From an uncultured Methanoregula sp. (GTDB lineage: Archaea; Halobacteriota; Methanomicrobia; Methanomicrobiales; Methanospirillaceae): a stretch of DNA of 64,000 bases. The stretch spans positions 3,386 through 67,385 of the forward strand of contig CAYPEQ010000007.1 of assembly GCA_964409915.1 (NCBI GenBank). Direction: 5' to 3'. Both the position numbers and the translations under genes were made by a program. The notes under the pieces were generated by a model, which worked only from the letters and a program-made list of their open reading frames with translations, searched no databases and was not told the DNA's origin. Shown here piece by piece: positions 3,677 to 58,265 of the stretch. How positions within the stretch are numbered: position 1 is the first letter of the stretch; each line of letters begins with the position of its first letter.

Positions 3677-4579
3677 ATGATCCTTAAGGAGTTTCTCAAA
3701 GAAGCAGGAACGGAAAAGAATCTTGCCAGTCTTATTCTCTTCCTGAGTGAACAGGCAGCTGAAGTAAAAAAGGGCTTTCTTTTGACCTGTTCGAACACGG
3801 CAGCATGCGGCACCCAGAACATCTTCGGGGAAGACCAGAAGCCACTCGACAAATACGCCGATGAAGTGTTCATCAACGCTCTAAAAGAGTCCCGGCTGGT
3901 CAAATATATTGCGACCGAAGAGCAGGATCATATCATCGAAGTACCCGGGGCCAGGAACAATTTTGGTGTGGTGATCGATCCCCTCGACGGTTCCTCTCTC
4001 CTTGACGTTAACCTCTGTGTCGGTTCTATTATCGGCATCTATCCCGGCCATGTTCTTGAAAAGGGATCAAAGATGATCGCAGCCCTCTACATACTGTACG
4101 GGCCACTCACCCTCCTGACGTTCACCACAAAACACGGCGTGCATGAATTTATCCAGCGCCAAGACGGCGAATTTTTCCTGTGCCACCGGGACCTGAAGAT
4201 CCCGGAGGGAAAAATCCACTCGCCGGGCGCACTCCGCAAGGATTACCTGGCACCTCACGCCCAATGGATCAGCCACCTGGAAAGCGAGGGGTACAAACTC
4301 CGGTTCAGCGGCTGTTTTGTGGCCGACGTCCACCAGATCCTCCATAAAGGAGGTGTGTTTACTTATCCCGGGTACAAAGGAAAAGAGTCAGGGAAACTGC
4401 GCCTCCTGTACGAAGCAAACCCTATAGGCATGATCATATGCGAGGCCGGGGGAGCAGTCAGCAACGGGCATACCGATTACCGGGAGATCATGCCGGCATC
4501 GATCGGCCAGGTAACCCCCCTTTATATCGGCGGTAAAAAAGAGATCGCAAAGATTGAAAAATATATGAAGGAAGGATAA
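3677..4579 (+). CDS. fbp: Fructose-1,6-bisphosphatase, class I (bacterial/eukaryotic type)
   Basis: Motifs [40 protein letters not shown] and EAGGAVSNG are present. AGGTGA at 3665-3670 sits 6 nt before the ATG. Confidence 0.9.
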
Positions 4580-4597
4580 GTACAGGGTGCATCAATT

Positions 4598-5737
4598 ATG
4601 GATACGAAAACCTTTGGCCCGATTCCCGGTTCGACTATCTTAACCGGGGTTTCCGGCAAAAAAGCCATTGTTATGGCCGCTAACGTCCGTATTGCAACGG
4701 TTGCGGAAGGCATTTTCAAGGCAGCAACAGATACCGACTCAGCGGTTTTCATGGAACTTGCCCGGTCAGAATCCGATCTTTCCGGGGGATACACCGGGAT
4801 GACCCCGCAGGTCTTTTCGGAGAAGATGCAGGCAGCAGCGAAAGCTACGGGGTGTGACATCTGGGCACTCCATGCCGATCACATATCCATCAAAAAAGGG
4901 GACGCCGCTGAGATTGCCGGGACAAAGCAGCTTATAGATGCACAGGTAAACGCCGGGTATACATCCTTTGCCATCGACGCCTCCCACCTCTTTAACTTCC
5001 AGGGAAAAAATGTCCGGGAGGAACTGGAACTCAATATCCAGGCCACATCTGAGATTGCCCGGTATATCAAACAGAAAATGAACGGAAGTGAATTTGGCCT
5101 TGAAGTGGAAGTGGGCGAGATAGGAAGAAAAGACACCGAAGGCCTGATCCTGACAAAACCTGAGGAGGCAGTCGGATTTATCAAAGCGCTCAACGAAAAC
5201 GACGTTTATCCTCATGTTCTTGCTATTGCAAACGGGAGTTCGCACGGCCATTCCTACGATGCCAACGGAAACGTGATCGAACAACTCTCAATCGATATCC
5301 CCCGTACCCAGGAGATTGCAAAGGCTCTCCGGGACAACCATCTCAAGGTCGGGATCGCCCAGCATGGTATCACCGGCACGCCGCGGGACCTCATTAACCT
5401 GCATTTCCCCAAAGGAGACATCATCAAGGGAAATGTCGGAACGTTCTGGCAGGACGTTGCGTTTAGTATCCTGAAAATCTACGAACCAGCCCTGTACAAG
5501 GATATCATGGACTGGACACTTGAGAAATACCGGCCGGAAAACCCGAATAAAAAAGACAAGCAGATCATCGACGGTAACTGCAAGAACGCGATAAAAGTCT
5601 TCTATAAAGAGATTTACGGGGTCGATGAAGAGACAAATAAAGCCATGAAGGCTATGGCCTACGCAGAAAGCCTCGTCTTTTTCCGGGCGTTTGGCGCATA
5701 TGGTACCGCATCAGCCATACGGAAATCCCTGCACTGA
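4598..5737 (+). CDS. fba: Class II (metal-dependent) fructose/ketose-bisphosphate aldolase family protein
   Basis: Motifs ALHADH, GYTSFAIDASH, EVEVGEIG, LAIANGSSHGHSY and IAQHGITGTP keep the three class II His ligand positions. The gene starts 18 nt after fbp. Confidence 0.8.
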   Translation: MDTKTFGPIPGSTILTGVSGKKAIVMAANVRIATVAEGIFKAATDTDSAVFMELARSESDLSGGYTGMTPQVFSEKMQAAAKATGCDIWALHADHISIKKGDAAEIAGTKQLIDAQVNAGYTSFAIDASHLFNFQGKNVREELELNIQATSEIARYIKQKMNGSEFGLEVEVGEIGRKDTEGLILTKPEEAVGFIKALNENDVYPHVLAIANGSSHGHSYDANGNVIEQLSIDIPRTQEIAKALRDNHLKVGIAQHGITGTPRDLINLHFPKGDIIKGNVGTFWQDVAFSILKIYEPALYKDIMDWTLEKYRPENPNKKDKQIIDGNCKNAIKVFYKEIYGVDEETNKAMKAMAYAESLVFFRAFGAYGTASAIRKSLH

Positions 5738-5797
5738 TCGGTCAAGCATCCCCAACCATTTTAGTATCCTGAAACGATCACTTATTATTGAACGCGT

Positions 5798-6895
5798 ATG
5801 CCAAAAACAACGATCTCCGTCATTAAAGCAGATGTGGGCAGTTTTCCTGGCCATTCCCGCACCCATCCTAAGCTCATTGAAAAAGCAGCGCAGATGCTCA
5901 AAGCCGAACGAGGTAAACTCATTATTGATTCCTTTGTGACGCACTGCGGCGACGATCTCGAACTTATCATGACCCATAACCGGGGCGTCGACAACAAGGA
6001 GATCCATAAGCTTGCATGGAACGTTTTCCTGGAATGCACAAAAATTGCCAAAGACCTGAAATTATACGGTGCAGGCCAGGACTTGCTTGCCGATGCGTTC
6101 GCGGGGAATATCCGGGGCATGGGCCCGGGTGTTGCCGAGATGGAATTTGATGAGCGGAGTTCGGACCCTGTCCTTATTTTTATGGCAGATAAGACTGAAC
6201 CCGGCGCGTGGAACTTCTACCTGTACAAGATTTTTGCCGATCCCTTCAACACGCCGGGCCTCATTATCGACCCGGCCCTCCATGACGGATTTGTATTCGA
6301 AGTCCATGATCTTGTCAAAAAACGAAAGGTGCGGTTCTCCTGCCCAAAAGAGATTTACAGCATGCTTACCTACATCGGGGCACCGTCCCGGTATGTAATC
6401 AAGCATGTATACAAAAAGGACGGTGTTATAGCTGCCGCGACCAGCACCCAGCGGCTCAACATGATTGCAGGGAGATACGTCGGAAAAGATGACCCGGTCA
6501 TGATCGTGAGAGCCCAGAGCGGTTTTCCCTCGATGGGCGAAGTGATCGAGCCGTTTACCACGCCGGTACTGGTCGCAGGCTGGATGCGCGGATCCCATCA
6601 CGGTCCGTTTATGCCGGTCGGTCTGTGCGATGCAAACTGCACACGGTTTGACGGCCCGCCCCGGGTCATCTGTTTTGGGTTCCAGGTCAGCAACGGCGCC
6701 CTTATAGGCCCTGCCGATATGTTCGATGACCCCGGTTTCGACCGGGTCCGGGTGCGTTGCAACGAACTTGCAGACACACTCCGCGCCCAGGGTCCCTTTG
6801 AACCCCACCGGCTTTCACTTGAGGAAATGGAATACACGACCCTTCCCCTGGTGGAAAAGGCGCTGGAAAAACGCTGGGAAGACATTGCAGAGTGA
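5798..6895 (+). CDS. fbp: Bifunctional fructose-1,6-bisphosphate aldolase/phosphatase (archaeal class V FBPase)
   Basis: The N-terminus MPKTTISVIKADVGSFPGHSRTHP and the 365-aa length are typical of the archaeal FBP aldolase/phosphatase family. Confidence 0.9.
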   Translation: MPKTTISVIKADVGSFPGHSRTHPKLIEKAAQMLKAERGKLIIDSFVTHCGDDLELIMTHNRGVDNKEIHKLAWNVFLECTKIAKDLKLYGAGQDLLADAFAGNIRGMGPGVAEMEFDERSSDPVLIFMADKTEPGAWNFYLYKIFADPFNTPGLIIDPALHDGFVFEVHDLVKKRKVRFSCPKEIYSMLTYIGAPSRYVIKHVYKKDGVIAAATSTQRLNMIAGRYVGKDDPVMIVRAQSGFPSMGEVIEPFTTPVLVAGWMRGSHHGPFMPVGLCDANCTRFDGPPRVICFGFQVSNGALIGPADMFDDPGFDRVRVRCNELADTLRAQGPFEPHRLSLEEMEYTTLPLVEKALEKRWEDIAE

Positions 6896-6983: not shown

Positions 6984-7220
6984 ATGGTTAACGGAATTGT
7001 TTTGCCTATAAAGAAAGTGTTTGCCCTCGTTGATTCCAAAATAATTGTTGAAATCAAGGATGAGGGGCGTAAACTCCAGGGCCGGCTTGTAGCAGTGGAC
7101 GAGTACCTCAATATCCATATGGACGAGACGATAGAATTTGTCAACAACGAGCGCGGGCGCAGTCTTGGCACCGTTGTTATCCGGGGCAATAATATTCTTA
7201 CCATAGCCCCGGTTCTCTGA
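6984..7220 (+). CDS. Sm-like (LSm) archaeal RNA-binding protein
   Basis: 78 aa. Sm1-like segment LQGRLVAVDEYLNIHMDE and Sm2 segment GTVVIRGNNI are present. Confidence 0.85.
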   Translation: MVNGIVLPIKKVFALVDSKIIVEIKDEGRKLQGRLVAVDEYLNIHMDETIEFVNNERGRSLGTVVIRGNNILTIAPVL

Positions 7221-7245: not shown

Positions 7246-7590
7246 ATGCCTGAAGTTGAAGATGATGCATTTGTCCTGATCCAGTCCCACCCGGAAGGGA
7301 TGCTCCAGAGTGAACTCTGGAAGGAACTCGGCGTAGACAGCCGTAAATGTTCAAGAATCGTAAAGAAACTCGAAGAGAGCGGTCTCATTGACCGTGTCGA
7401 ATTTAAAAAAGAGGGAATCAAAACCTATCTCTTAAAGGCAAAGATGCAGCCTGTCCATCCTGAGGACCTGCTTGCCGGCGATGAGCTGATTCCCTGTATC
7501 GCATGCGACCTTGAATGTGTCGTTGACGAATGCCATCCCCTTATGGACTGGATGTACCAGCTTGCAATTGTCGGGAGCGGCAACCAGTGA
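7246..7590 (+). CDS. Winged-helix DNA-binding protein with C-terminal Cys cluster
   Basis: MLQSELWKELGVDSRKCSRIVKKLEESGLIDRVE is wHTH-like. The C-terminus is PCIACDLECVVDECH (CxxCx3Cx4CH). It starts 26 nt after the Sm gene. Confidence 0.6.
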   Translation: MPEVEDDAFVLIQSHPEGMLQSELWKELGVDSRKCSRIVKKLEESGLIDRVEFKKEGIKTYLLKAKMQPVHPEDLLAGDELIPCIACDLECVVDECHPLMDWMYQLAIVGSGNQ

Positions 7591-7639: not shown

Positions 7640-8140
7640 ATGACCCGCCTGAAGCTGCCGCTTATCCTGGAATGCCTTCTTTTTTTTGTGCCGCTCAATA
7701 TCTATATTATCGGCAATCATATGGCAAACGGTATCCAGTGGGCCTTTTTCCGGTACCAGCAGAGTTCCCTTGGAAACAGCCTGATCCTTGTGTACAAAGA
7801 TATCCATTATGTCGCAGACAGTCTTCTGACTGGGTCAAGTGCTTACGGGACCATTATCTGGGTGTCCGGGGCAGGTCTCCTTTTTATCGCGTTGATTATC
7901 CTTGCAATTGCTTTTGCTACAGATAATCCCGGCCTCGCAAAACCCGCAGGGGGGCTCACCATTGTCGCAGGAGCTCTCTTTTTTATCGCGATGCTCGTCG
8001 AATACGGACCCCTTTTTGCAAACGAACATGGATCTTCCATTCCGGTGGGCATCCCCCTCGTAATCGGCGCTGGCATTTGGTTACTTACAGGAGATTTCGA
8101 AGACGATGATGAAGAACCGGTTGAATCAACCACCTCCTGA
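7640..8140 (+). CDS. Integral membrane protein (about 4 TM) with acidic tail
   Basis: An internal ATG at 7640 of ORF 7511-8140 gives MTRLKLPLILECLLFF, which avoids overlap with 7246-7590. Hydrophobic segments are followed by GDFEDDDEEPVES. Confidence 0.55.
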   Translation: MTRLKLPLILECLLFFVPLNIYIIGNHMANGIQWAFFRYQQSSLGNSLILVYKDIHYVADSLLTGSSAYGTIIWVSGAGLLFIALIILAIAFATDNPGLAKPAGGLTIVAGALFFIAMLVEYGPLFANEHGSSIPVGIPLVIGAGIWLLTGDFEDDDEEPVESTTS

Positions 8141-8270
8141 AAAGAATGCATTCCGGCCATAAATTGGAGGAAATCGGCAATTTCCCCATCATAGAAGTCA
8201 ACTATTTATTGCAACGATATCAGATCATAGGTATACATGCAGGCATGATGCCAACCCCGGGAAGTTCCTG

Positions 8271-9950
8271 ATGATATCCGTCCTCTTTGTCGATGACAAC
8301 ACCGACTTTCTTACCCAGTTTCGTCCAGTGCTTGAAAAGACCGGTGAGGTTCGGATGGAGACAGTGGCCTCTGCAAAGCAGGCAATTGAGAAACTTAAAA
8401 GCAGAAGCTTTGATGTCATCGTCTGTTACGAGGAGAATGCACCGGTCAACGGGATAGAATTTGTTGCCGATATGGACGGTATCGGCTTTTTACGGTATAT
8501 CCGCTCCATGGGAAATCCGACACCGGTCATTATCTTCCACCGGAAAGGGGATAGCCGGGTCACCTTTGAGGAGGTCAGTAACGGTGCCGAGATTGTGGTC
8601 CAGCGGACCGGCGACCTCCGCTCACCTGGGGCTGACCTGGTCACCCTTATCAAACAGGCAGCATTAAGAAAGAAAGCCGAACGGGACGTAAAACTGGAAA
8701 AAGACCAGCTGACTGCGATTCTCTCAGCAACACCTCTCGGTATATTCCAGATGCGGAACTCTGTTATCGAGTGGATCAATCACCCGCTTGCCGCTCTCCT
8801 TGGGGCACCGGAATCTTCGATCGTGGGAAAACCCGTCCGGTCACTTTTTAAGACCGATGAAGAGTTTATACAGGTATTCCGTGACCTCCAGATCCACCGT
8901 GATGTTCTCGGGAACGGTTGCGCGGAATGCGAACTAGTCAGGCCGGGCGGCAGTATTATTGCCTGTACCCTCCAGGCCCGGCTCCTCGATCCGCTTGATG
9001 CAAAAAAGGGCGGCACTGTCGTCGTAACCGATATTTCCGATAAAAAGAAGATGCGGGATGCCATCAAGGAAAGCGAAGCAAAGTACCGGGAGATGATGCA
9101 GAACACCCAGAGTATTATCGTCCGTATGGATGTCCAGGGTGTCATCACCTATGTCAATACCTATGCGGCTGCATTCTTTGATTATGCCGAGGCCGACCTC
9201 GTGGGAAAAAATATCGTCGGTACTATTACCCCGGAGAAGAACCGGGGCGGCCACGACCTCTCGATGATGGCAAACGACCTGGGTTTTAATGCCGAAGGAT
9301 ATGCCATTAACGTCAGCGAAAACATCCGCAGGAATGGCGATATCGTCTGGATTGCCTGGATCAACAAAGCGATCCGCGATCTGCAGGGCCACATCGTTGA
9401 AGTCCTGTGTATAGGCCATGATATTACTGACCGTAAACAGACCGGTGAAGTTCGCATCAGCACCGATACCTGGAAAGATCAGGTCGTTGCCGATACTGAT
9501 GTGCGCCAGGAAGTGTTCGATTCGGTGTTCCACATCTGCACCGAGATCTCAATTGAAGGAAGAGAAGGAAAAGCGGTTGGCACGACATTTCTTATCGGCG
9601 ACACCAAAAACGTGCTCGCAAAATCCCGGCAGATCATGCTCAACGCTTTTGAAGGCCACCAACCTGATATGCGTATGGTTACCAATCCCGATTTAAACGA
9701 GAACATCAAGGAATTTGCCCAGCTCGATGGGGCATTCGTCATCTCCGGCGATGGTTTTATCGAAGCATCGGGGCGCTATATCACGGTCGACTCAAGCAAG
9801 GTAACGCTGCCAAAAGGTATGGGTACACGACACAATTCGGTTGCGGCTATCACGAGCGTTACCCGGGCTGTTGGTATCGTCGTCTCCCAGAGCGGCGGCG
9901 GGATCACGATTTTCAAGAACGGGCAGATCTTAAAGAAGATCAGCCTGTAA
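8271..9950 (+). CDS. Signalling protein: degenerate receiver - PAS - PAS - DAC (DisA_N-type diadenylate cyclase) domain
   Basis: The N-terminus MISVLFVDDN..FDVIVCYEE is a receiver fold lacking the acceptor Asp. Two PAS-like blocks follow. The C-terminus carries GKAVGTTFLIGD, QLDGAFVISGDG, GMGTRHNSVAAIT and VVSQSGGGITIF, matching the DGA / RH(x)xA layout of DAC domains. Confidence 0.6.
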   Translation: MISVLFVDDNTDFLTQFRPVLEKTGEVRMETVASAKQAIEKLKSRSFDVIVCYEENAPVNGIEFVADMDGIGFLRYIRSMGNPTPVIIFHRKGDSRVTFEEVSNGAEIVVQRTGDLRSPGADLVTLIKQAALRKKAERDVKLEKDQLTAILSATPLGIFQMRNSVIEWINHPLAALLGAPESSIVGKPVRSLFKTDEEFIQVFRDLQIHRDVLGNGCAECELVRPGGSIIACTLQARLLDPLDAKKGGTVVVTDISDKKKMRDAIKESEAKYREMMQNTQSIIVRMDVQGVITYVNTYAAAFFDYAEADLVGKNIVGTITPEKNRGGHDLSMMANDLGFNAEGYAINVSENIRRNGDIVWIAWINKAIRDLQGHIVEVLCIGHDITDRKQTGEVRISTDTWKDQVVADTDVRQEVFDSVFHICTEISIEGREGKAVGTTFLIGDTKNVLAKSRQIMLNAFEGHQPDMRMVTNPDLNENIKEFAQLDGAFVISGDGFIEASGRYITVDSSKVTLPKGMGTRHNSVAAITSVTRAVGIVVSQSGGGITIFKNGQILKKISL

Positions 9951-9999
9951 TCTTTTTCGCCGGCATCTACCGGAAATGATTTTTTCTTGCTAGAGGAAC

Positions 10000-14511: not shown

Positions 14512-14904
14512 TTACAAAGAATGCTGTGGCCGGGAGTTAATGAGCGCTTTGCCGATAAGATCGAGGAGTTCAGTATCAACAAATGGTTTGAAGATCACGC
14601 CACTCTGAGCAACACCCATCATTCGCGCAAGGACATTCTCTGATGAGAAAGCGGTTATAAAAATAACGGGGATCGAAAATCGCTGCTGGATCTTTTGTGA
14701 CGTATCGATGCCATCGAGGGAGCCTCCAAGACCGATATCCATGAGAATGATATCAGGTTTTGGGCATTTTTCAAGTGCCTCAATGGCCATTTCGCCGGAG
14801 GAAGCCGGTTCGATAACGTTGTAACCTGCTCGTTCAAGTATCTCGGTTAGATGAAGCATGATCAATCCTTCGTCTTCGACTATCAGTACAGCTTCCCCGG
14901 TCAT
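14512..14904 (-). CDS. Single-domain response regulator (receiver)
   Basis: An internal ATG at 14904 gives MTGEAVLIVEDEG..PDIILMDIGL..VIFITA..IFKPF, so the canonical acidic pocket, T and K positions are present. Confidence 0.8.
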   Translation of the reverse strand: MTGEAVLIVEDEGLIMLHLTEILERAGYNVIEPASSGEMAIEALEKCPKPDIILMDIGLGGSLDGIDTSQKIQQRFSIPVIFITAFSSENVLARMMGVAQSGVIFKPFVDTELLDLIGKALINSRPQHSL

Positions 14905-14960
14905 ATGTTTTCCCTGGTATTTGTCCACCTCATGAAGTCTCTTCCTTTTATGCGGATTTT

Positions 14961-16913
14961 TTATTTCTTGCGACCGGTTTTTACAAACCGCCATGCATTA
15001 TGGGGGATCAGTAACTCGAACCGTGCTCCCTTCCCGGAGGTACCAATCTCCTGAATCGTTATGCCGGTAATCATCAGGATCTCCCGGGATAAGAACAGAC
15101 CCATACCGGTATTTTTGCCGACCCCGCGTTCGAAGATCCGGTCTTTTGCCTCGTCCGGGATACCGATGCCATCGTCCTCGCAGATAAGAGTCATTCCCTT
15201 TTCAGTGATTACGTAAAAGAACCTGATGGTGGTTATTGTCTCTCCGTAACGGAGCGCATTATCAATAAGGTTATAGAATACTTTCTCTAGGAGGGGATCG
15301 GCATAAATTTCTGTGTCTTCGAGATCCAGGACAAACGTGATCTCTGACTGGGAAAAGTTGACCATATCACGCTCCATAACCTCCTTGAGATTCTGCCAGA
15401 CCGGGGCGTTGACACCAACTTCCTGATATTCCCGGGTAAAAGTGATTTGGCGCTGGATGACCCGCACCAGATCCTTAATCTGTGCGAGAAGAATATCGTG
15501 TTCTTCCTTATTTTTAGTTGAAACAGCCATATCAACGCATCCGATGACACCGGTGACAGTGTTAAGAATATCGTGCCGGGTGATGCTGTTGAGCAGGTTC
15601 AGTTTCTTGTTGGCCAGCTGCATCGCATTTTCCGCTTGACGGTGATCGGTAATATCCCTCAGCACACCATACAGGCCTACGGCCTTACCAAAAACATCCA
15701 CCCGGATAGTACCTTTTTCCTCCACCCAGTGGGTATTCCCCCACATATCTACAATCCGGAATACAGAGGTTTCCTCGGGTTCACCACACGTTACCTTTTT
15801 TAAACTCGCAAGCACGCCTTTACGATCATCCGGATAGACGAAATCAATGAGTGGGTGAGAGACTACATCCTCTTCGAGGAAACCATACCGGTTTACAAGG
15901 GGTGAAACATAGGTAAATATGCCATTTACATCAAGTGAGAAGAGAAGATCGGCAGTGTTCTCTGCAAGGGCACGATACTTCTCTTCACTTTCCCGGAGTT
16001 CGACTTCAATATTCCTGCGTTCGGTGCTGTCCCGTATTAATTCTACAGCACCCACCATTTTGCCCTCCCTGTTGTATAAGGGTGAAGAGATACACCAAAG
16101 CGAGGCACTATTACCGTTGTTGAAAAAGGGGATTGTAATCTCGGAGATAAGCTTTTTACCATCTCTTATAAGAAAGGGGAAATAATTTGCAATGATTTTT
16201 GGATCATTACAGGTGACTATATCGATAAGCATGGGCCGGCGTTCATGGTAAAAGGGAAGCGCGTATGCATAGTCTCCTTTTTCCAGGATTTCATCTGCGC
16301 AGATGCCCGTTAGCTGCTCCATTGCATGGTTCCATGCTGTCACCACGCCGTTTTTATCGATGGCAAAGATCGCATCCGGAAGGGAATCGATGAGGTCTGT
16401 TTCTCTTCGTTCAAGATCTCTGATATACATTTCCATCTGCTTCTGCCGAACAGATTGACGTATTGCATTACTGAGATCGGTAAACAATAATGTGGGATTA
16501 CTGCATTTCTGAAGGCAAAACGTGGCACCCTCGCTGAGTGCCTGAATGACAAACATTTCCCGGTCATTCCCGGAAAAAAGGATAAAAGGTATGTTATTTC
16601 CCGATGACCGTATCTGTTTTAAGAATTCGATGCCGTTTATCCCGGGCATCTGGTAGTCAGAGACGATCACTTCGTAATCCCGGCCCTGCATTTTTTCAAA
16701 CGCTTCTTGTGCGGAAAATGCGATATGCACTGAGAACTGAGGATCTTTTTCAAGGAACCTCCTCCCCACTTCAAGGAGACCTGAATCATCGTCGACAAGA
16801 AGGATCGTTATTTTGGTTAACCCTTCTCGTTTTGATGTCCCTGAAAAAGATCGAGATATCTCTTTTTTAATCGCATTTTCGCCATTTTCCTTTATTACAC
16901 TGGAATCAGACAT
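14961..16913 (-). CDS. Hybrid sensor histidine kinase: receiver - PAS - PAS - HisKA - HATPase
   Basis: Receiver motifs ILLVDDD and YEVIVSDYQMPGINGIEF; two PAS blocks; H-box ITRHDILN; ATPase motifs NLIDNALRYG, DDGIGIP and GKNTGMGLFLSREI. Confidence 0.85.
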   Translation of the reverse strand: MSDSSVIKENGENAIKKEISRSFSGTSKREGLTKITILLVDDDSGLLEVGRRFLEKDPQFSVHIAFSAQEAFEKMQGRDYEVIVSDYQMPGINGIEFLKQIRSSGNNIPFILFSGNDREMFVIQALSEGATFCLQKCSNPTLLFTDLSNAIRQSVRQKQMEMYIRDLERRETDLIDSLPDAIFAIDKNGVVTAWNHAMEQLTGICADEILEKGDYAYALPFYHERRPMLIDIVTCNDPKIIANYFPFLIRDGKKLISEITIPFFNNGNSASLWCISSPLYNREGKMVGAVELIRDSTERRNIEVELRESEEKYRALAENTADLLFSLDVNGIFTYVSPLVNRYGFLEEDVVSHPLIDFVYPDDRKGVLASLKKVTCGEPEETSVFRIVDMWGNTHWVEEKGTIRVDVFGKAVGLYGVLRDITDHRQAENAMQLANKKLNLLNSITRHDILNTVTGVIGCVDMAVSTKNKEEHDILLAQIKDLVRVIQRQITFTREYQEVGVNAPVWQNLKEVMERDMVNFSQSEITFVLDLEDTEIYADPLLEKVFYNLIDNALRYGETITTIRFFYVITEKGMTLICEDDGIGIPDEAKDRIFERGVGKNTGMGLFLSREILMITGITIQEIGTSGKGARFELLIPHNAWRFVKTGRKK

Positions 16914-29937: not shown

Positions 29938-32655
29938 TTAGTTCCCATTCTTTCGGAACAGGAATATTGCGCCGCACAGGCCGATTGCACCGAGGATGGG
30001 CACGGCATCGAGGCCGGTCTTTGGTGTATTAGTTGGAACTGGCGGGATTGTAGTAGATACTGGAGCAGGCTGGTTAACCGTTGGCGGTTGTGTTGGCATT
30101 ACCGTCGGATGACCTACCGTAGGCATCTGGGTTGGACTTCCTGCGGCCGGGGTGGTACTGGGGCCGGTATACCCGGAGGAGGTTCCGGTGTTGCCGGTAT
30201 TTTCCCAATAGACAGTGCCGGCACTGTGTGAGTGGGATGTGGGGGCAGAACCGGTGATACTGATCGTCACAGGGGCAGGATAGCCATCAACGGTTGCGTC
30301 GACCGTTGCTGTCCCGGTTCCCGTGGGAGTAAATGTGGTCTGCGACACACCGGAGGCGGTCAATGTTTGTGAGGGATTGACCCCGCCTAGCCCGGAAATC
30401 ACACTAAAAGATACGGGGATGCCATCCGGGACGACACTCCCGGGTAGATAGGTATTGTCCCCGTTGGAATCGTAGATAAGGCTTGCCTGGACCGTGGAGG
30501 TCTGGAGGGGATAGTAGGTGATGGCTGCCGGTGTGGCGGTGACATTCAGTACCAGCCACGGATTATACAAAACGCCGTTGCTTACAAAGCTGGAGACGTT
30601 GCTGTTCGTGCCCCACCAGTTGTCCGTGGCAATCATCGCCGGATATTCGCCGGAAAATGCGGTGCCGGTGTTTTGCGGATTCTGGGAGCCCGCCGGGGCA
30701 GCTGGAAATATCCCCTGGACCACTGCTAAGGTTGTGTTATCGTTGACCAACCGGGAGAACTGGATGTTACCACCTTGGGCAAAGACAGCGCCGCCTAAAC
30801 TCCCGGCCCCTCCAGCCGAGCAATCAATAATGGTCGTTTGGTTCAATACTGCCGTACCCCGGGAAAAGATAGCCCCACCGTCACTATCTGCTCCTATTAC
30901 CGAGCAGTTGGTAATGGTCGTTTGGTTCACCACTGCTTCATTATCTGAATATATGGCACCGCCTAGACCATAGCCATCCCCTGCCGCGCAATTGGTGAAT
31001 GTGGATGAAGTTACTGACAGTATACCGCCCACCGATCCTTCATGACGCGCGTCTATTGCACCGCCATAGGCATCCCAATTCAAATCTGTGCAGGAGGTAA
31101 ACGTGGACGAACTCACCGTAAGGTCACCGTTCTGAACGTAAACGGCGCCACCGTCCCAACCGCCCGTGCAGTTGGTGAATACAGAATTGGTCACCGTTGC
31201 GTAAGCTGCCGGGATTATCGATCCAGGAGAGGGAGCTGTCTCTCCTTGAGTGGTGAGTACGAAAATAGCGCCACCCCAGCCATCGGGACTTGCTATTCCG
31301 CAGTTGGTGAAGGTGGACCCGGAAACGTTCACGCCATATGTAGAATAAATTGCTCCGCCGGCGTTGTTGGTGTATTCTTCTTCTCCGGCATATGATGGGC
31401 AGCTGCAGCCGGAGAACGTGGACGAAGTTGCTGTTACGCTCCCCCCAGAGAAAATACCCCCGCCGTTAGCGCTGGTGCCGGTAGCTAAGCAGTTGGTGAT
31501 CGTGGACCCCGTTATGTTTACATTTCCACCTGCGTAAATTGCGCCGCCATCGGTTACAGCTGTGCAAGCGGTAATGGTCGATGAGGTCAGCGTGGTCACA
31601 CCTGCCGAATGTATTGCGCCACCATTACTCCCGGCGGTACAGTTGGAAATCTGGGATGACTGAACAGTTACTGTTTGTGCCGAAATGGCACCCCCCCAGT
31701 TGGTAGTTGTGTTGCAGGAGACTATCGAGGAATTGGTCAACAATACCGAACTCCACGAGGAAAGAGCACCACCATAACCTCCTGCCGCGCAGTTGGAGAT
31801 AGTAGATGAACTCACGTTTATCGCTTGTGCCGAAATGGCACCTCCAATACCGTCCGCTCCATTTGCATAGCAGTTAGTGATCGTGGACCCGGTTACGGTT
31901 ACCGTCCCGCCTCCCTGGGGTCCGTTAATAGCACCGCCTCCTCCATACCCACTGGTATCGGATGCAGTGCAGTTGGTAATCGTGGACCCGGTCACGGTTA
32001 CTGGGCCTGATGAATAGATTGCACCGCCTTTCAAAATTGTTACCACGCAATTGGTGAAGGATGAGGATGTGATATTAACCGTGCTGCCGGTCCAGGCAAA
32101 GATCGCTCCGCCGCCTTCGGAGGTTGTTTTTGATGTGCATTTGGTAAATGAAGATGAGGTAATGGTGAGAGTGTAAGCGGCACTATGGAGAGGATTAAAC
32201 CAGATAGATCCACCATCACCCGTACCCGAGGTACAATTGTAGAACTGGCAACCAGTGATGGTGAGGGGGCCGCTCGCTGCAATTGCGCCACCCCCACCAT
32301 TTTCTGAATTCATATTCTGTAGGGCCAGATTGCTGAGGGTGAGGGATGAGGAATCCGTTATATAGATAAACCTGTAACTGGACTGCCCATCGATGATCGT
32401 GTCCGACGGGCCATGACCAGCTGCCGCCGTGATGGTGATATTCTTACCACTTGACAAGATCACGGAAGACACAAAATACGTTCCCGGCTCAAGAACGAGG
32501 GTATCACCATCATGCATCGCGGAAATATTTGTCGCGAGCGCATTCAGGGAACTGTTATCGATGGTGATTATCGCCGCGGGTGTGGGTGCCACAACAATAA
32601 CCAGCGCTAAAATCAACAGCGATGCAAGAACCAGACTATACCGTTTTAAACCCAT
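29938..32655 (-). CDS. Large surface protein: about 17 parallel-beta-helix (polymorphic-membrane-protein-like) repeats, Thr/Pro linker, C-terminal TM anchor
   Basis: ATG 32655 gives MGLKRYSLVLASLLILALVIVVA. The repeated unit is S(S/T)(F/I)TNC....GGAI(Y/F/S). The tail is PTVNQPAPVSTTIPPVPTNTPKTGLDAVPILGAIGLCGAIFLFRKNGN. Confidence 0.75.
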   Translation of the reverse strand: MGLKRYSLVLASLLILALVIVVAPTPAAIITIDNSSLNALATNISAMHDGDTLVLEPGTYFVSSVILSSGKNITITAAAGHGPSDTIIDGQSSYRFIYITDSSSLTLSNLALQNMNSENGGGGAIAASGPLTITGCQFYNCTSGTGDGGSIWFNPLHSAAYTLTITSSSFTKCTSKTTSEGGGAIFAWTGSTVNITSSSFTNCVVTILKGGAIYSSGPVTVTGSTITNCTASDTSGYGGGGAINGPQGGGTVTVTGSTITNCYANGADGIGGAISAQAINVSSSTISNCAAGGYGGALSSWSSVLLTNSSIVSCNTTTNWGGAISAQTVTVQSSQISNCTAGSNGGAIHSAGVTTLTSSTITACTAVTDGGAIYAGGNVNITGSTITNCLATGTSANGGGIFSGGSVTATSSTFSGCSCPSYAGEEEYTNNAGGAIYSTYGVNVSGSTFTNCGIASPDGWGGAIFVLTTQGETAPSPGSIIPAAYATVTNSVFTNCTGGWDGGAVYVQNGDLTVSSSTFTSCTDLNWDAYGGAIDARHEGSVGGILSVTSSTFTNCAAGDGYGLGGAIYSDNEAVVNQTTITNCSVIGADSDGGAIFSRGTAVLNQTTIIDCSAGGAGSLGGAVFAQGGNIQFSRLVNDNTTLAVVQGIFPAAPAGSQNPQNTGTAFSGEYPAMIATDNWWGTNSNVSSFVSNGVLYNPWLVLNVTATPAAITYYPLQTSTVQASLIYDSNGDNTYLPGSVVPDGIPVSFSVISGLGGVNPSQTLTASGVSQTTFTPTGTGTATVDATVDGYPAPVTISITGSAPTSHSHSAGTVYWENTGNTGTSSGYTGPSTTPAAGSPTQMPTVGHPTVMPTQPPTVNQPAPVSTTIPPVPTNTPKTGLDAVPILGAIGLCGAIFLFRKNGN

Positions 32656-33023
32656 CTTAGCCACCAACTCCATCAAATGAACAAACAACCCGGAGTTACA
32701 AGTATTTTGACAAAATTGAGAGATTCCCAATTTCAAATAAACCTGTACATCTTAGTTACCATACATTCTATAGGACAATATAAAGAGATTACGATATAAA
32801 GTGACGTTGCATTAACGGAACTTTATAAAAATGATACAGTCGTTAGACAGTATTGTTAACCCCTTAAAAATCCCGACAACGCAACAGAAGGCTCTGTTAA
32901 GTCTTCGAATGATAGCATTAAGCCTACATCGAGGAAAATATGTCCCCACCCGCAAGACGCATCAAGTTCCTCCAAAGATACCTTTAAACGCCTCTTGTAC
33001 ACACATCATCGAAGTGAGAAATC

Positions 33024-34073: not shown

Positions 34074-36887
34074 ATGAAAAATATCATCATTAAAGGTGCC
34101 CGCCAGCACAACCTGAAAAATATCAATGTGGAGATCCCCCGGGACAAGCTTGTCGTCATCACCGGTGTCTCCGGCTCCGGCAAATCCACATTAGCCTTTG
34201 ACACCCTCTATGCCGAAGGCCAGAGAAGATACGTCGAATCACTTTCCACCTACGCCCGCCAGTTCCTGGGCCTCATGCACAAACCCGACGTGGACAGCAT
34301 CGAAGGACTCTCGCCCGCCATCTCCATAGAGCAGAAGACCACCTCCAAAAATCCACGGTCAACTGTAGGAACCACCACCGAAATCTACGATTACCTCAGG
34401 CTCCTTTTTGCGAGAATCGGTATTCCCTACTGCCCTGAACATAACATCCCCATCGCGGCCCAGACCCCGGAAAAAATCGCAGACCAGATAGCGGCCGAGT
34501 ACTCCGGCATGGTCACCATACTCGCACCAATCGTAAGGCAGAAGAAAGGGACCTACCAGCAACTCCTCAAAGACCTCAACAAAGAGGGATATGCCCGGGT
34601 CCGGGTCAATAAAAACATCATCCGGACCGATGAAGAAATCGCCCTTGACCGGTACAAGAAGCAGGATATCGAGATCGTCATCGACCGGTTAGAAACAACA
34701 GATCGTTCGCGGCTTGCAGAAGCAGTAGAAAACACCCTCAAAAAGTCCGAGGGTCTCGTACTCGTTGCCGATGAATCAGGCAAAGAATCAACCTACTCCT
34801 CCCTGTTAGCATGCCCCATCTGCGGCCTCGCGTTCGAAGAGCTCCAGCCGCGGATGTTCTCGTTCAACAGCCCGTTTGGCGCCTGCGAAGAGTGTCACGG
34901 GCTCGGCGTCAAGATGGAATTCGACGCCGATCTCATCATCCCGGATAAAGACCGGTGTATCGCAGACGGTGCTGTTGCCCCCTACCGGAACCCCATGGAC
35001 GGTTTCCGGGGCCAGTACCTCGCAACCGTTGCAAAACACTACGGTTTCTCGGCCCTCACGCCCATAAAAGACCTCACCGAAGAGCAGTACAACGCGCTCA
35101 TGTTCGGCTCGAACGAAAAGATGCACTTCGAGATGAGCATGAAAAACGGGGAGGCCCAGTGGTCGCATAACGGCGAATGGGAGGGTCTTCTCCCCCAGAC
35201 CGCCCGACTTTATTCCCAGACCCAGTCAGAATGGCGGAAACGGGAGCTGGAGAATTATATGCGGGTCTTTCCCTGCCCGGCCTGCAAGGGAAAACGGCTC
35301 AAGGATAAAGTGCTCGCCGTCCGGATCAAGGATAAATCGATCATCGATGTCACGGATCTTTCGATCACCAACGGCTTGGCATTCTTTTCCGGTCTCCAAC
35401 TCACCGAAAAAGAGCAGGAGATCGCCCGGCAGATCATAAAAGAGATCAATTCCCGGCTGTTGTTCCTGGAAAAGGTCGGTCTTGGCTACATCACGCTCTC
35501 ACGAAACGCCGGTACCCTCTCCGGGGGCGAGATTCAAAGGATCCGGCTTGCCACCCAGATCGGATCAAACCTCATGGGCGTCCTGTACGTCCTCGATGAA
35601 CCCTCCATCGGGCTGCACCAGCGCGACAACAAAAAACTCATCGGAACGTTACGAACCCTCCGTGACATAGGAAACACGCTCATTGTTGTGGAACATGACG
35701 AGGACATGATCCGCAGTGCAGACCATGTCATTGACATCGGGCCGGGTGCCGGGCTCCATGGTGGCGAGATCATAGCCGAAGGCACACCGCAGCAGATAGA
35801 AAAGAACAAAAAATCCCTCACCGGGCAGTACCTTGCCGGGAAAAAACGGATCGAGGTACCCACGAGTCGTCGCAAAGCAACGAAGTATATCACGGTCAAA
35901 GGCTGCACGGAAAACAATCTCAAAAACATCAACGTTAAAATCCCCATCGGCCTTTTTTCCGTCGTCACCGGCGTTTCCGGGTCCGGCAAATCCACGCTGG
36001 TCTACGACACCCTGTACAAGGGTATGATGCAGAAGCTGTACGGTTCCCGGGAACAGGCAGGTGCCCACAAAGCGATCACCTTCGATTCTGAGATCGACAA
36101 GGTCATCGTCATCGACCAGAGCCCCATCGGCCGGACACCACGGTCGAACCCGGCAACCTATACCAAGCTCTTTGACGAGATCCGGGCGGTCTTTGCGGAA
36201 ACCAAGGACGCAAAGATGCGAGGCTACAAGCCCGGGAGGTTCTCGTTCAATCTCCGGGGCGGCCGGTGCGAGGCCTGCGAAGGAGACGGCCTGATCAAGA
36301 TCGAGATGAATTTCCTGCCCGACGTCTATATCGAATGCGAAGAGTGCAAGGGGAAGCGGTACAACCGGGAGACCCTCGAAGTAAAATACAAAGGTAAGTC
36401 AATTGCCGATGTGCTGGACATGAGCGTCGAGGAAGCGATGGCGCTCTTTGAACACATACCCTCGATCCAGAGCAAACTTGAGATGCTCTCCCGGGTTGGT
36501 TTAGACTATGTCAAACTGGGGCAAAGTGCAACCACGCTTTCAGGAGGCGAGGCACAGCGGATCAAGCTCACCAGGGAACTCGCAAAGAGGGCGACGGGAA
36601 AGACCCTGTACCTGCTCGATGAACCCACAACCGGGCTCCATTTTGACGATACCAAAAAACTCATCAAAGTGCTCGACGACCTCGTAGAGAAAGGCAACAC
36701 CGTCGTCGTAATCGAACACAACCTCGATGTGATCAAATCAGCCGATCACCTCATCGACATCGGTCCGGAGGGCGGGGATGCCGGGGGAGAGATCGTGGCT
36801 ACCGGCACTCCGGAACAGGTGGCAGCGGTACCGGAAAGTTATACCGGGCAGTTCCTGAAGGCGATGCTTGCGAAAAAAGCCTCCTAA
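34074..36887 (+). CDS. uvrA: Excinuclease ABC subunit A
   Basis: 937 aa. The N-terminus is [45 protein letters not shown]. There are two ABC modules with zinc-finger CxxC pairs. Confidence 0.95.
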
Positions 36888-39357: not shown

Positions 39358-40221
39358 TCAGGATTTTCCTATCAGTGCTAGTCTCTGGCTAATCTGATAC
39401 AGCACATCCGAAACAATCTCCTCGCGACGGGTAATATCAACGATCCAAAACCGGATAGAGACCGTAGTTGCCGGTGGTTCGATGCCGGAGAGCAGAACCC
39501 TTGAGGGGAAGTGTTCGGGACATTTCTCCGGCAAAGACAATTCGCGGAGACGGGACACCAGCATTTTTCCCGGGGTGTCAATCTTATGTTCGGGTTTGAT
39601 ATTGGGCAGGATTTCCGGATGGGCAGCTAGTAGTGCAAGGATAGTTTCGCGTGCCTGAGCAAAGGAAACAGCCGGTGGAAGTGACAGCGTCACGGGGATC
39701 TCGATATAACCTGATTGTGAGTAATTGACAATTTTTGAGGATAGTAATGCAGAATTGGGCAGGATAAAGACCCGGCCATCGCGATCTTTTAGAGTCGTAC
39801 GTGAAAAGGTCATATCCTGAACCTGGGCAATACCCGTCTCGGGTTCATTACCGAGTTCTACCCAATCGTCAAGCTCAACGGTATGATTAATGGCAATGAT
39901 GAACCCGGCGAGCAGGTTTGAGATGATCTGCTGGGAAGCAAACGCGAGAGCTATACTGAGTATCCCCAGCGAGGCGAATGTTGCACTGACATCAAACCCG
40001 AGAAATGCGAGGTCGCAGTAATACAGGCCAATGCCAAAAATAATATAGCCGACAACTCGTGCTGTCCAGCGGGCAACCGATCGGCTGTACAATCGTGTCA
40101 GCACAACGGACACGGTCTTATAGCAAAGGTAGGACAGAAAAATAACGACGATGGTTGCGGCGGTAAAGATGATAAAGTTCTCAAGGGGGACATTGCCGAT
40201 GAGGATCTGCGTACCGCTCAT
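39358..40221 (-). CDS. Small-conductance mechanosensitive channel (MscS family)
   Basis: ALAFASQQIISNLLAGFIIAINHTVELDDWVELG..RDGRVFILPNS. GGAGTGAT sits 4 nt before ATG 40221. Confidence 0.85.
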   Translation of the reverse strand: MSGTQILIGNVPLENFIIFTAATIVVIFLSYLCYKTVSVVLTRLYSRSVARWTARVVGYIIFGIGLYYCDLAFLGFDVSATFASLGILSIALAFASQQIISNLLAGFIIAINHTVELDDWVELGNEPETGIAQVQDMTFSRTTLKDRDGRVFILPNSALLSSKIVNYSQSGYIEIPVTLSLPPAVSFAQARETILALLAAHPEILPNIKPEHKIDTPGKMLVSRLRELSLPEKCPEHFPSRVLLSGIEPPATTVSIRFWIVDITRREEIVSDVLYQISQRLALIGKS

Positions 40222-40306
40222 AAGTATCACTCCACGGTGAATAGTAAAAAGCTAATCACGGTAGAGGACCAAATGCAAACAGTTATCTGCCAAATCAATC
40301 ATAAAA

Positions 40307-42517: not shown

Positions 42518-43837
42518 ATGACAACCTCAAAACGTCAGGCAAAGAAACGACACGAGACGCCCCTTAACCTGCTCAGGAAATACTGGGGCTATGCCACATT
42601 TCTGCCTCTTCAGGAGTCAATAATCAACGCGGTCCTTGCAGGACAGGATACCTTGGCCATTCTTGCCACCGGGAGCGGAAAATCGATCTGCTACCAGGTA
42701 CCAGGGTTGTGTCTCGGTGGTCTCACCGTTGTCATCTCACCACTCATTGCGCTTATGAAAGACCAGGCCGATGATCTTAATGCCCGGGGGATACTGGCAG
42801 CTGCCTGCACCGGAACACTCGATTATCGCGAGCGTGCAAAAGTCATCACCGACATAAAAGAAGGAAGACTGCAGTTCCTGTTTATCTCCCCGGAAAAAGC
42901 CACGCAGGCCGGTTTTCTTGAGATCCTCACAACAGCACCAGTCCATCTCATTGCCATCGATGAAGCCCACTGCATCTCGGAATGGGGGCACTATTTCCGG
43001 CCTGAGTACCGAAAACTGGCCCGGTTCAGGGACTATTTCCCGGGTGTACCGGTCATTGCCCTTACGGCAACTGCAATTCCTGAAGTCAGGAAGGACATCT
43101 GCCGGCAGCTCGGGCTTGTCCACGTCCAGGAATTCGTAGGCAGTTTTAACCGGGAGAATCTTACCTACAAGGTAACCGAAAAGAAAAACCCGCTTATCCT
43201 TATCACCGATATACTCAGCCGGCATAAAAACGAACCGGGGATCATCTACTGCATGAGCAGGAAAACAACCGTGGAGTTGACCGGGGAGCTCCGTAAGAAG
43301 GGATTTACGGCACGTGCCTATAACGCAGGCATTTCCGCGCCGGTGAGGGCAGGCATCCAGGATGCATTTCTGAACAACACCGTGCAGATCATATGTGCCA
43401 CTGTTGCGTTCGGCATGGGGATCGATAAGCCCGATGTCCGGTTTGTTGTTCATTATGATCTCCCCAAAACCATCGAGTCCTATTACCAGGAGACCGGCCG
43501 GGCAGGCCGGGACGGGAAGCCTGCTGAATGCATTCTCTTCCACAGCAAGACCGATGTGGAGAAAATCCGGAACTTGTTGTCCTATGGTTGCAAGAACAGC
43601 CAGACGGTCAAAATGGCACGGGATAAATTCCGCGATCTATGCCATTTCTGCGAGATCACCTCGTGTAAAAGGAGTTTTCTGCTAGCTTATTTTGGGGAAG
43701 GTCAGGGCCCTGACGGTTGTGCGATATGTGAGACCTGTATGCATCCAAACATACCTGCGGGCAAGGTCATCAGTCATAAAAAAGTGCGGAGTTATCGTGG
43801 GAGAATTGCTTGCGCCAATCCGGTCCCTGCCAGCTGA
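42518..43837 (+). CDS. recQ: RecQ-family ATP-dependent DNA helicase (short form, no HRDC)
   Basis: Motifs FLPLQESIINAVLAG.DTLAILATGSGKS and DEAHCISEWGHYFRPEY, the helicase C domain, and the Zn-binding CHFCE..C..CAICETC. Confidence 0.9.
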   Translation: MTTSKRQAKKRHETPLNLLRKYWGYATFLPLQESIINAVLAGQDTLAILATGSGKSICYQVPGLCLGGLTVVISPLIALMKDQADDLNARGILAAACTGTLDYRERAKVITDIKEGRLQFLFISPEKATQAGFLEILTTAPVHLIAIDEAHCISEWGHYFRPEYRKLARFRDYFPGVPVIALTATAIPEVRKDICRQLGLVHVQEFVGSFNRENLTYKVTEKKNPLILITDILSRHKNEPGIIYCMSRKTTVELTGELRKKGFTARAYNAGISAPVRAGIQDAFLNNTVQIICATVAFGMGIDKPDVRFVVHYDLPKTIESYYQETGRAGRDGKPAECILFHSKTDVEKIRNLLSYGCKNSQTVKMARDKFRDLCHFCEITSCKRSFLLAYFGEGQGPDGCAICETCMHPNIPAGKVISHKKVRSYRGRIACANPVPAS

Positions 43838-43898
43838 CCAGAGGTCTTACCCGATACCGAGCGTTTAAAAAGGCTGCATCCGGATAGTTCTTTTAGGA

Positions 43899-47129: not shown

Positions 47130-47783
47130 TTATGGTTGGTATGCAAGCGGATCCCTGATACCAGCCTGTGCAAACGCTTCGAGCCTTTCCGTGCAGGCAC
47201 CGCATTTCCCGCAGGAGAGGTCTTCACCTTTGTAGCATGACCAGGTATCTGCATATTCCACACCGAGCCCAATTCCTTTTTTAACAATGTCGCCTTTGGA
47301 GAGCCATAAATAAGGCACACTGAGTACGAGATCGTGCCAGTCGCAAAGGTGTAACGCTGTGGTCATAGCACTCACAAACGCCGGCCGGCAATCAGGGTAA
47401 ATCGCATGATCTCCAGCGTGTGCCGCGTAAAACAGGTTTTTTGCACCTATACCGATAGCGTAAGCAGCTGCAAGGCTCAAAAAGATCATGTTCCGGTTGG
47501 GGACCACCGTCTGCTTCATGGTATCTTCAGCATAATGGCCTTCGGGGACCTTCCAGGTGTCCCGGGTCAGGCTCGAGGGGGCAAGATCGTTTAAGACTGG
47601 AAGGTTGACAAGGGTATGAGGGACATGCAGTTTTTTACAGGTCTTTTCTGCGCACCGGATCTCCTTTTTATGCTTCTGGGAATAGTCAAAGGTGACCGCC
47701 GCAACCTCGTATCCCTGATCGATGAGATCGTACAGAAGAGTAGTGCTGTCCATGCCCCCGGAAAAAATAAGTACTGCCTTCAT
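47130..47783 (-). CDS. queC: 7-cyano-7-deazaguanine synthase
   Basis: MKAVLIFSGGMDSTTLLY, VPNRN, and the C-terminal zinc site CYKGEDLSCGKCGACTER. Confidence 0.9.
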   Translation of the reverse strand: MKAVLIFSGGMDSTTLLYDLIDQGYEVAAVTFDYSQKHKKEIRCAEKTCKKLHVPHTLVNLPVLNDLAPSSLTRDTWKVPEGHYAEDTMKQTVVPNRNMIFLSLAAAYAIGIGAKNLFYAAHAGDHAIYPDCRPAFVSAMTTALHLCDWHDLVLSVPYLWLSKGDIVKKGIGLGVEYADTWSCYKGEDLSCGKCGACTERLEAFAQAGIRDPLAYQP

Positions 47784-58146: not shown

Positions 58147-58265
58147 GATTTTCTCCCGGGTTTTGAGATCTGATTCGGATACGTCAGAAAAAGTACGTTG
58201 GATGGATGACAGGATATCATCCATTTTACCGTATGGTTATGTTAGGCAGGTGGAGGATTGTATTC

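Follow-up and report, generated by a model that had tools for sequence, protein, structure and literature searches.

Archaeal experiments on cyclic di-AMP (c-di-AMP) signaling have been carried out almost only in Haloferax, with its cyclase DacZ. In peatlands and wetlands, much of the methane is produced by Methanoregula, a dominant genus there, and the gene described here is conserved throughout that genus. This gene of an uncultured Methanoregula sp., located at positions 8271..9950 of a 64,000-nucleotide (nt) stretch of DNA (assembly GCA_964409915.1, contig CAYPEQ010000007.1, positions 3,386-67,385, forward strand; hereafter the window), encodes a predicted diadenylate cyclase whose N-terminal receiver has lost its phospho-acceptor Asp. 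The combined evidence argues that the protein is probably a diadenylate cyclase of the cytoplasm that works as a dimer, is gated by its PAS domains and carries a pseudo-receiver acting independently of phosphorylation. Coordinates given below are on the forward strand of the window unless marked (-).

The gene runs from an ATG start codon to a TAA stop codon at 9948-9950 and encodes 559 amino acids (aa). In a genome scan, relatives of its diadenylate cyclase (DAC) domain were confirmed at 236 sites; the best 80 loci were retained, 59 of which carry intact orthologues of 558-572 aa (nearly all 559-562 aa), and 69 were used to count synteny. These 59 orthologues and the window protein constitute the 60 species-level relatives on which all family counts are based. 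The N-terminal start, MIS(V)LFVDD, is kept among relatives, with M1 present in 59/60. Pfam and NCBIfam profiles established the domain order REC, PAS, PAS, DAC (gene coordinates from the open reading frame (ORF) listing), namely PF00072 (Response_reg) at aa 4-110 (E 2.5e-9; 37.7 bits, gathering score 30.2), PF00989 (PAS) in two stretches (61.5 bits, E 9.1e-17), the sensory-box model TIGR00229 likewise in two stretches (98.5 bits), and PF02457 (DAC) at aa 427-552, where 3-118 of the 119 model positions are matched (E 7.7e-19; 67.9 bits, gathering score 27). The original prediction, made from the letters alone, had proposed a DAC domain driven by a degenerate receiver and two PAS domains; all peptides that it quoted (VLFVDDN, DVIVCYEENAP, GKAVGTTFLIGD, QLDGAFVISGDG, GMGTRHNSVAAIT and VVSQSGGGITIF) were found in the translation. 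The DAC and Response_reg matches lie above the curated cutoffs, and both PAS domains are borne out by the repeated profile matches and by PAS folds in an AlphaFold2 (AF2) model. Since Pfam, NCBIfam and CdaA-structure matches all identify it, the observation is real, correctly placed and far beyond chance.

The DAC (DisA_N) domain occupies aa 427-559 (9549..9947), as delimited by PF02457, the DacZ model NF041371, whose match begins at aa 404, and solved structures of CdaA. Its catalytic motifs align in register with CdaA (E 1.7e-7 for the single sequence and 2.7e-12 with a profile of the clade alignment): D486-G487-A488 (9726..9734, followed by F-V-I) with D171-G172-A173; G518-T519-R520-H521-N522 (9822..9836), the equivalent of the RHR motif but reading RHN, with G-T202-R203-H204-R205; and S539-Q540-S541 (9885..9893) with S222-E223-E224. 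A search of 1.84 billion cluster representatives yielded 1226 relatives of the domain, 216 of them at E <=1e-30. In a clade alignment of 17 diverse representatives (43-63% identity), including DacZ-like proteins of the PK_C type, 19 columns are invariant, among them E425 and G430 (EGREG), G437-T438, K480, D486-G487, G516, G518, R520-H521, A525, S539 and G543, and the window protein has 19/19. Profile and alignment thus place it in a DacZ-related clade, and the DGA and RH parts of the layout described in the original prediction align with those of CdaA.

Three positions differ from CdaA and speak against a working cyclase: RHR is replaced by RHN, E223 by Q540 and E224 by S541. On the basis of docking, E223 has been taken as an active-site side chain of CdaA (PMC10167629). 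Such replacements would fit a catalytically dead domain that binds ATP or c-di-AMP to act as a sensor or a scaffold, making the protein a receptor or adaptor. However, each of the three positions is variable within the DacZ-like clade and therefore not diagnostic of inactivity: the third residue of the RHR motif may be S, A, T, G, N, R, K, Q, I or V, and the conserved Ser is succeeded by E, Q, K or D and then, in at least 90% of clade members, by a second Ser, with DacZ-like proteins of the PK_C type sharing in this variation. The canonical Methanoculleus DacZ carries RHR and SES. Also against a dead domain, the clade-invariant residues are all present and are conserved throughout the family; of the motif positions, D486, G487, T519, R520, H521, N522, S539, Q540 and S541 occur in 60/60 relatives and A488 in 59/60. 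The ratio of nonsynonymous to synonymous substitution rates (dN/dS; pairwise Nei-Gojobori, 101 pairs with dS 0.15-1.0) is lowest for the DAC domain, at 0.04, and its mean family identity is 0.87. Judged by its sequence, the domain probably has cyclase activity, and a catalytically dead DAC appears improbable.

The distribution of canonical DacZ bears on the same point. Among the best 120 matches to a Methanoculleus DacZ, many of which are unnamed, named relatives belong to Methanoculleus, Methanofollis, Methanogenium, Methanoplanus, Methanolacinia, Methanomicrobium, Methanocalculus and Methanocorpusculum, and none of the named ones to Methanoregula, Methanolinea or Methanospirillum, which suggests that the families of these three genera replaced DacZ with variant cyclases. 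Given that no Methanoregulaceae occur among the named canonical DacZ relatives, the variant DACs may be the sole c-di-AMP source of the lineage, a suggestive point against their being inactive. A tblastn search found no second DAC in the window.

DAC domains of this subtype, 50-67% identical, were also observed fused to differing N-termini in Methanomicrobiales and Methanoperedens, in a set of 11 loci and three proteins. The partners are a TrkH cation transporter (P0122, L085, L086), an MIT-like domain with AAA and Vps4_C (P0125, L078), two PKD domains with a transmembrane (TM) segment and a helical domain (P0138, L076, L088, L094), or a short MIT-like/TM segment alone (L073, P0128). In the TrkH-DAC fusion, a K+ transporter and c-di-AMP synthesis are physically coupled.

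The receiver (aa 1-125, 8271..8645), delimited by the PF00072 match, an alignment based on hidden Markov models (HMMs) and the AF2 model, was compared by means of a jackhmmer/hmmalign profile with Escherichia coli CheY and three canonical receivers of the window, located at 14961-16913 (-), 14512-14994 (-) and 58206-58661 (+). Y53 (codon 8427..8429) stands where CheY has its phospho-acceptor Asp, D57, an assignment supported by spacing, because the distance from Y53 to N60-G61 equals that from Asp to N-G in the receiver of a neighboring hybrid kinase (SDYQMPGINGIEF in the kinase, CYEENAPVNGIEF in the cyclase protein). This kinase, encoded at 14961..16913 (-), is the source of the EVIVSDYQMP peptide (near position 16670) with which DVIVCYEENAP had originally been contrasted. 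The replacement of the acceptor and the retention of the DD pair, both proposed from the sequence, hold in the alignment: Y53 is Tyr in 59/60 relatives and Phe in 1/60, while D8 and D9 (CheY D12 and D13) are kept in 57/60 and 60/60, respectively. The accompanying suggestion that the conserved Thr and Lys are substituted holds for Thr, whose column (CheY T87) contains H90 (C 18, G 17, H 8, S 8, A 7 and N 2 in the family), but Lys is changed only conservatively, the column of CheY K109 containing R112 (K 30, R 18, others 12).

Directly after the former active-site motif, at the start of helix a3, a tandem 9-aa duplication (8445..8498; VNGIEFVAD / MDGIGFLRY, family consensus VNGIEFVSD / MNGIEFLKY) forms a 9-residue insertion relative to CheY and all other canonical receivers aligned. 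In a 59-sequence protein alignment, V59, N60, G61, F64 and G70 are invariant and D67 is conserved in at least 90%; in the 60-sequence locus set, G61, F64, D67 and G70 are found in 60/60, V59 in 59/60 and N60 in 58/60. Conservation around the former active site also includes E54 (59/60). The receiver is under purifying selection (dN/dS 0.11, falling to 0.055 over aa 55-72, i.e., the b3-a3 loop and most of the duplication; mean family identity 0.75), which argues that it is functional rather than decaying. Eleven distant clusters (50% identity) of the same pseudoREC-PAS-PAS-DAC organization, whose N-terminal domains score below the Pfam threshold, show no Asp at the aligned acceptor position; Y, V, N, G or P occurs there where the alignment reaches it, whereas in five of the 11 it ends at or before this column. 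With neither the family nor the distant clusters showing Asp, the description as a degenerate receiver is correct and the loss of Asp is old. The AF2 model retains b1 (2-7), a1 (13-23), b2 (27-32), a2 (35-44), b3 (49-53), a3 (70-79), b4 (86-92) and b5-a5, with a4 not predicted as a helix (predicted local distance difference test, pLDDT, 63-70 in this region). The domain therefore has the features of an Aspartate-less receiver (ALR): a receiver fold, no acceptor Asp and evolutionary maintenance.

The receiver with the highest identity to this domain in the window (35% over 105 aa) is a 151-aa single-domain protein encoded at 58206-58661 (+), which reads MISVLYVDD...SFDVIVTDYN. It keeps the acceptor Asp and therefore shows the state of the cyclase receiver before Asp was lost.

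Since Tyr replaces Asp, phosphorylation at the canonical site is impossible. The protein could still be a true response regulator if its receiver took up phosphate at some residue other than the canonical one, or if a histidine kinase controlled it by binding stoichiometrically, as might be argued from the conserved acidic residues D8, D9, E54 and D67, from Lys at the K109 column in 30/60 relatives, and from the counting of the Methanoregula boonei protein Mboo_1616 among response regulators (PMC5847659). Moreover, 5 kb from the cyclase gene lie the genes for a 650-aa hybrid sensor kinase (REC-PAS-PAS-HATPase) and, after it, a single-domain receiver (14512-16913 (-); the two ORFs overlap by 34 nt at the 3' end of the kinase gene). 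However, the pair is syntenic in only 1/69 loci, and a conserved partnership was therefore rejected; the hybrid-kinase matches recorded at offset 0 in the synteny count are REC/PAS self-homology of the cyclase gene and not the kinase. A working receiver is further contradicted by the absence of Asp from the acceptor column of all 60 relatives and, as far as aligned, of the 11 distant clusters, by C, G, H, A or N in the Thr/Ser column of 52/60, and by a duplication that remodels the b3-a3 loop beside the site. Control by phosphorylation or kinase binding is accordingly unlikely, and the receiver very probably acts without phosphorylation.

What, then, supplies the signal? A long helix (aa 117-153, 8619..8729) in the AF2 model, a probable dimerization or signaling helix, connects the receiver to PAS1 (aa ~151-262, 8721..9056), which corresponds to the second PAS stretch in Pfam, matches PDB entry 3mqo over aa 152-258 (E 9.6e-5) and has PAS topology at aa 157-254 (pLDDT 82-91). 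A PAS_GdpP match on PAS1 (16.7 bits, cutoff 27) is not significant. PAS1 is the least conserved domain (mean family identity 0.67, dN/dS 0.17). A further long helix (aa 256-278) leads into PAS2 (aa 263-392, 9057..9446), which is matched by TIGR00229 and by PF00989 (aa 271-385), has PAS topology at aa 282-386 and ends with DITDRK; its mean family identity is 0.86 and its dN/dS 0.07. The linker between PAS2 and the DAC domain (aa 393-426, 9447..9548), short and non-helical in the model, contains an R-I-S-T-x-x-W-K motif and a (G/D)TD(V/I) cap that opens the DAC unit. Its invariant residues are R395, I396, S397, T398, W401, K402 and D410, its mean family identity is 0.89 and its dN/dS 0.05. In conservation, PAS2 and the RISTxxWK linker equal the catalytic domain. 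RIxTxxW(K/R) recurs in distant PAS-DAC clusters, whereas DACs with other N-termini share only the cap; because the motif tracks PAS-DAC proteins in this way, the linker is likely a coupling element.

For the PAS-PAS part of the model, the best Foldseek matches are the dimeric PAS-PAS sensors DosP, a haem sensor, and FixL (8js5, target TM-score 0.60-0.64), which raises the possibility that PAS2 is a haem domain of the FixL type and that c-di-AMP synthesis in a strict anaerobe is tied to O2, CO or NO. The NCBIfam FixL model matches aa 250-330 (E 7.6e-12), and in the HMMER alignment H328 coincides with the proximal His of FixL (PE..R..HD). Nevertheless, H328 is replaced by Asn in 8/60 relatives and by Arg in the three distant clusters compared there (P0121, P0123, P0158), the sequence similarity ends right after the His, and the fold match is that of generic PAS-PAS proteins. 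Equivalents of FixL R206, H214 and R220, the haem-propionate-holding and O2-binding residues, are absent in a manual alignment. With H328 variable and the other pocket residues lacking, a FixL-type haem site was rejected as unsupported and is very improbable.

The best 120 protein matches are all at least 65% identical, nearly all full length and of the same domain content, and their named sources are Methanoregula or Methanoregulaceae metagenome-assembled genomes (MAGs). A close, complete genome (OY969564.1) has an orthologue that is 94% identical. Upstream of the cyclase gene, a conserved series on one strand comprises genes for a class II aldolase-like protein, a fructose-bisphosphate (FBP) aldolase/phosphatase, an LSm protein, a 114-aa winged helix-turn-helix (wHTH) protein and, optionally, a small membrane protein; over 69 loci, the same-strand neighbors include wHTH in 63, LSm in 62 and FBPase in 46, and the downstream side is not conserved. 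In the window, the LSm gene lies at 6984..7220 (PF01423, 65.8 bits) and the wHTH gene at 7246..7590, the latter with Pfam wHTH matches and a C-terminal Cys/His cluster (CIACDLECVVDECH), so that its product could be a redox- or metal-sensing regulator. The small membrane protein (7721..8140, start at 7640 or 7721; no Pfam match) is encoded directly 5' of the cyclase gene; it was detected in 39/69 loci, and about 20 loci leave no space for it, the wHTH gene starting only ~460 nt before the cyclase. The cyclase gene is vertically inherited in a housekeeping context.

This position also bears on whether the cyclase could be an anti-phage signaling gene, as proposed for dac genes associated with cyclic-oligonucleotide-based antiphage signaling systems (CBASS); some dac genes reportedly have this association. 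The gene has one PADLOC match, to the model 'Diadenylate cyclase' (40.6 bits), but it covers only the generic DAC domain, the neighbors have no significant defense matches, and the position beside FBPase, LSm and wHTH genes is stable in more than 60 genomes. A defense or CBASS role was rejected for want of a defense context and in view of the housekeeping synteny, and its likelihood is put at close to nil.

Several loci depart from this picture. Eight have shorter cyclase ORFs (190-492 aa, truncated or split); as most of these are in long-read 'MFD' assemblies, homopolymer indel errors are likely, rather than pseudogenes. Near-identical cyclase loci also occur in a Dehalococcoidia MAG (L051/L208) and a 'Candidatus Rokubacteria' MAG (L058/L248). 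Their DAC domains being 79-80% identical to that of the window, with the same synteny in L058, these bacterial labels are probably binning or labeling errors. Three MAGs match cyclase-specific patterns on two contigs (L036/L259 and L241; L211 and L239; L074/L171 and L230), which may reflect a second copy, strain heterogeneity or fragmented assembly.

Metatranscriptome assemblies of four wetland samples cover the gene at >=99% identity. One contig spans 8023-10301 and one 7746-9321, with contig starts at 8023, 8165 and 8249, and depth over the cyclase gene was 6-10, compared with 38-56 over the LSm and wHTH genes in two of the runs. A TATA-like element (TATTTATT, 8203..8210), read from the sequence alone ~60 nt 5' of the ATG, is a possible promoter of the cyclase gene itself, and two terminator-like oligo-T tracts (9953-9957 and 9980-9985) were similarly read 3' of the stop codon, between convergent genes.

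Elsewhere in the window, three fructose-bisphosphate genes that look redundant for gluconeogenesis stand in tandem at 3677-6895 (+); their products are an FBPase of class I type (PF00316), an aldolase-like protein of class II (PF01116) and an archaeal FBP aldolase/phosphatase (PF01950). Genes for UvrA, a RecQ-like helicase, UvrC and an encapsulin shell protein (Linocin_M18) are located at 34074-36887, 42518-45452 and 45906-46694 (+). Two ORFs, 29938-32736 (-) of 932 aa and 47783-49570 (+) of 595 aa, have no Pfam match at E <=1e-4, and an Rfam scan of the window gave no matches.

The architecture itself has a place in existing classifications. According to Braun et al. 2019 (PMC6741144), Corrigan and Grundling (2013) set five archaeal DAC classes, DacV to DacZ, and DacX is represented there by M. 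boonei A7I8S2. In the supplement of Galperin et al. 2018 (PMC5847659), Mboo_1616 (ABS56133) is entered as 'REC-PAS-PAS-DisA', the sole such entry in a census of 218 complete archaeal genomes, and the 2023 survey of DAC architectures by Galperin distinguishes 22 families, as quoted in PMC12901056. We infer that ABS56133 and A7I8S2 are the same protein, since ABS56126 is A7I8R5 and both accession series advance by 7. The window protein is assigned to the DacX class by its architecture and Methanoregula label. The original statement that such an input architecture had not been studied for archaeal c-di-AMP signaling thus stands as regards experimental work, none of which was found, and does not stand for the architecture, which had already been classed as DacX and catalogued as REC-PAS-PAS-DisA. 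A published statement of an Asp-less receiver or a loop duplication in DacX was not found in the literature, and the acceptor Tyr, the duplicated loop, the selection on the pseudo-receiver, the linker motif, the synteny and the presence in wetland metatranscriptomes are the new details here.

These results can be joined in a proposed mechanism. In DisA and CdaA, two DAC domains, each carrying one ATP, must meet face to face. Based on that mechanism and the intact motifs, the C-terminal DAC domain is proposed to condense two ATP to c-di-AMP when two DAC domains face each other. To judge from its anatomy, the N-terminal part would dimerize in parallel, with the helices at aa 117-153 and 256-278 and both PAS domains as contacts. 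By analogy with cyclic-dinucleotide enzymes regulated by PAS domains, a ligand or redox signal, sensed mainly by PAS2, would shift the linker, and this shift would control the productive pairing of the two DAC domains, whereas the pseudo-receiver would most likely serve as a dimerization or partner-docking module without phosphotransfer. PAS gating of the cyclase is held to be somewhat more plausible than not. In a less likely alternative, to which a small chance is given, the Asp-less receiver is a second input and no passive dimerization domain: its acidic pocket (D8, D9, E54 and D67) is conserved, and the duplicated loop, under strong constraint, would create a binding site for a metal, a small ligand or a partner protein. 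DacX would then integrate two signals, through the receiver and PAS2, within a lineage (Methanoregulaceae and Methanospirillaceae) where REC-PAS-PAS, PKD-TM, TrkH and MIT-AAA cyclases apparently took the place of canonical DacZ.

Beside the differences from CdaA discussed above, several points weigh against a PAS-gated dimeric cyclase with a phosphorylation-independent pseudo-receiver. The AF2 model, built from 59 relatives at >=65% identity, is of moderate quality (pLDDT 74.7, predicted TM-score 0.42), and pLDDT is below 50 in two conserved segments, aa 58-65 (the duplicated loop) and aa 317-346 (PAS2). No cofactor signature was found. Metatranscriptome libraries and assemblies can contain DNA. 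The locus of the class representative, M. boonei A7I8S2, turned up neither in three genome scans nor among the best 120 protein matches, so that orthology to it is presumptive, and the literature yielded no experimental study of the DacX class.

If the PAS-gated cyclase is the correct reading, the protein would offer a direct handle on the cue that sets c-di-AMP levels in these organisms and, presumably, potassium and osmolyte balance. The pseudo-receiver is a clean natural case in which such a domain has been retained for something other than phosphotransfer. The value of the protein lies in providing a well-defined experimental target for archaeal c-di-AMP regulation rather than a new kind of system.

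Comparison with characterized systems places the protein as follows. The closest characterized DAC domains are those of DacZ (Haloferax volcanii HVO_1660) and CdaZ/DacY (Methanocaldococcus jannaschii), and the window protein shares EGREG, KEFAQLDGAF, G(T/S)RH and VS(E/Q)SGG with the DacZ clade. Membership in DacZ itself was rejected: the haloarchaeal DacZ model NF041371 gives 111.8 bits, where its equivalog cutoff is 430, and covers only model positions 115-263 of 270, i.e., the catalytic half, which agrees with the original prediction that the N-terminus differs from that of DacZ. Instead of the PK_C-like DacZ_N domain of DacZ, the window protein has REC-PAS-PAS; PF21754, which canonical DacZ relatives carry together with PF02457, is not among its Pfam matches at E up to 1. 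In H. volcanii, dacZ adjoins mscS2 in an operon (PMC6741144), whereas the window cyclase gene is not next to mscS: a gene for an MscS-type mechanosensitive channel was observed at 39358-40230 (-), 30 kb away and unlinked to it.

CdaA is anchored in the membrane through three TM helices, and its regulators are CdaR and GlmM. The window protein has in common with Listeria monocytogenes CdaA (4rv7/6hvl) the catalytic fold, the DGA and GTRH motifs and the conserved Ser, so that, by analogy, a face-to-face two-ATP mechanism is presumed, but unlike membrane-anchored CdaA it is soluble. In its overall logic it resembles the c-di-GMP proteins PleD and WspR (REC-GGDEF) and DosP (PAS-PAS-GGDEF-EAL), in which N-terminal dimerizing sensors likewise control an enzyme that needs two catalytic domains to meet. 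It differs from these in having a DAC domain, in being directed to c-di-AMP rather than c-di-GMP, and in its receiver without the canonical Asp. ALR domains such as those of RitR, ChxR and HP1043 commonly act via an a4-b5(-a5) dimer face (Maule et al. 2015, PMC4395418). Like them, the window protein has a conserved receiver fold without the phospho-Asp; unlike them, it carries Tyr at the acceptor position, a duplicated b3-a3 loop and an a4 region modeled as non-helical (low confidence), and it is fused not to a DNA-binding domain but to PAS-PAS-DAC.

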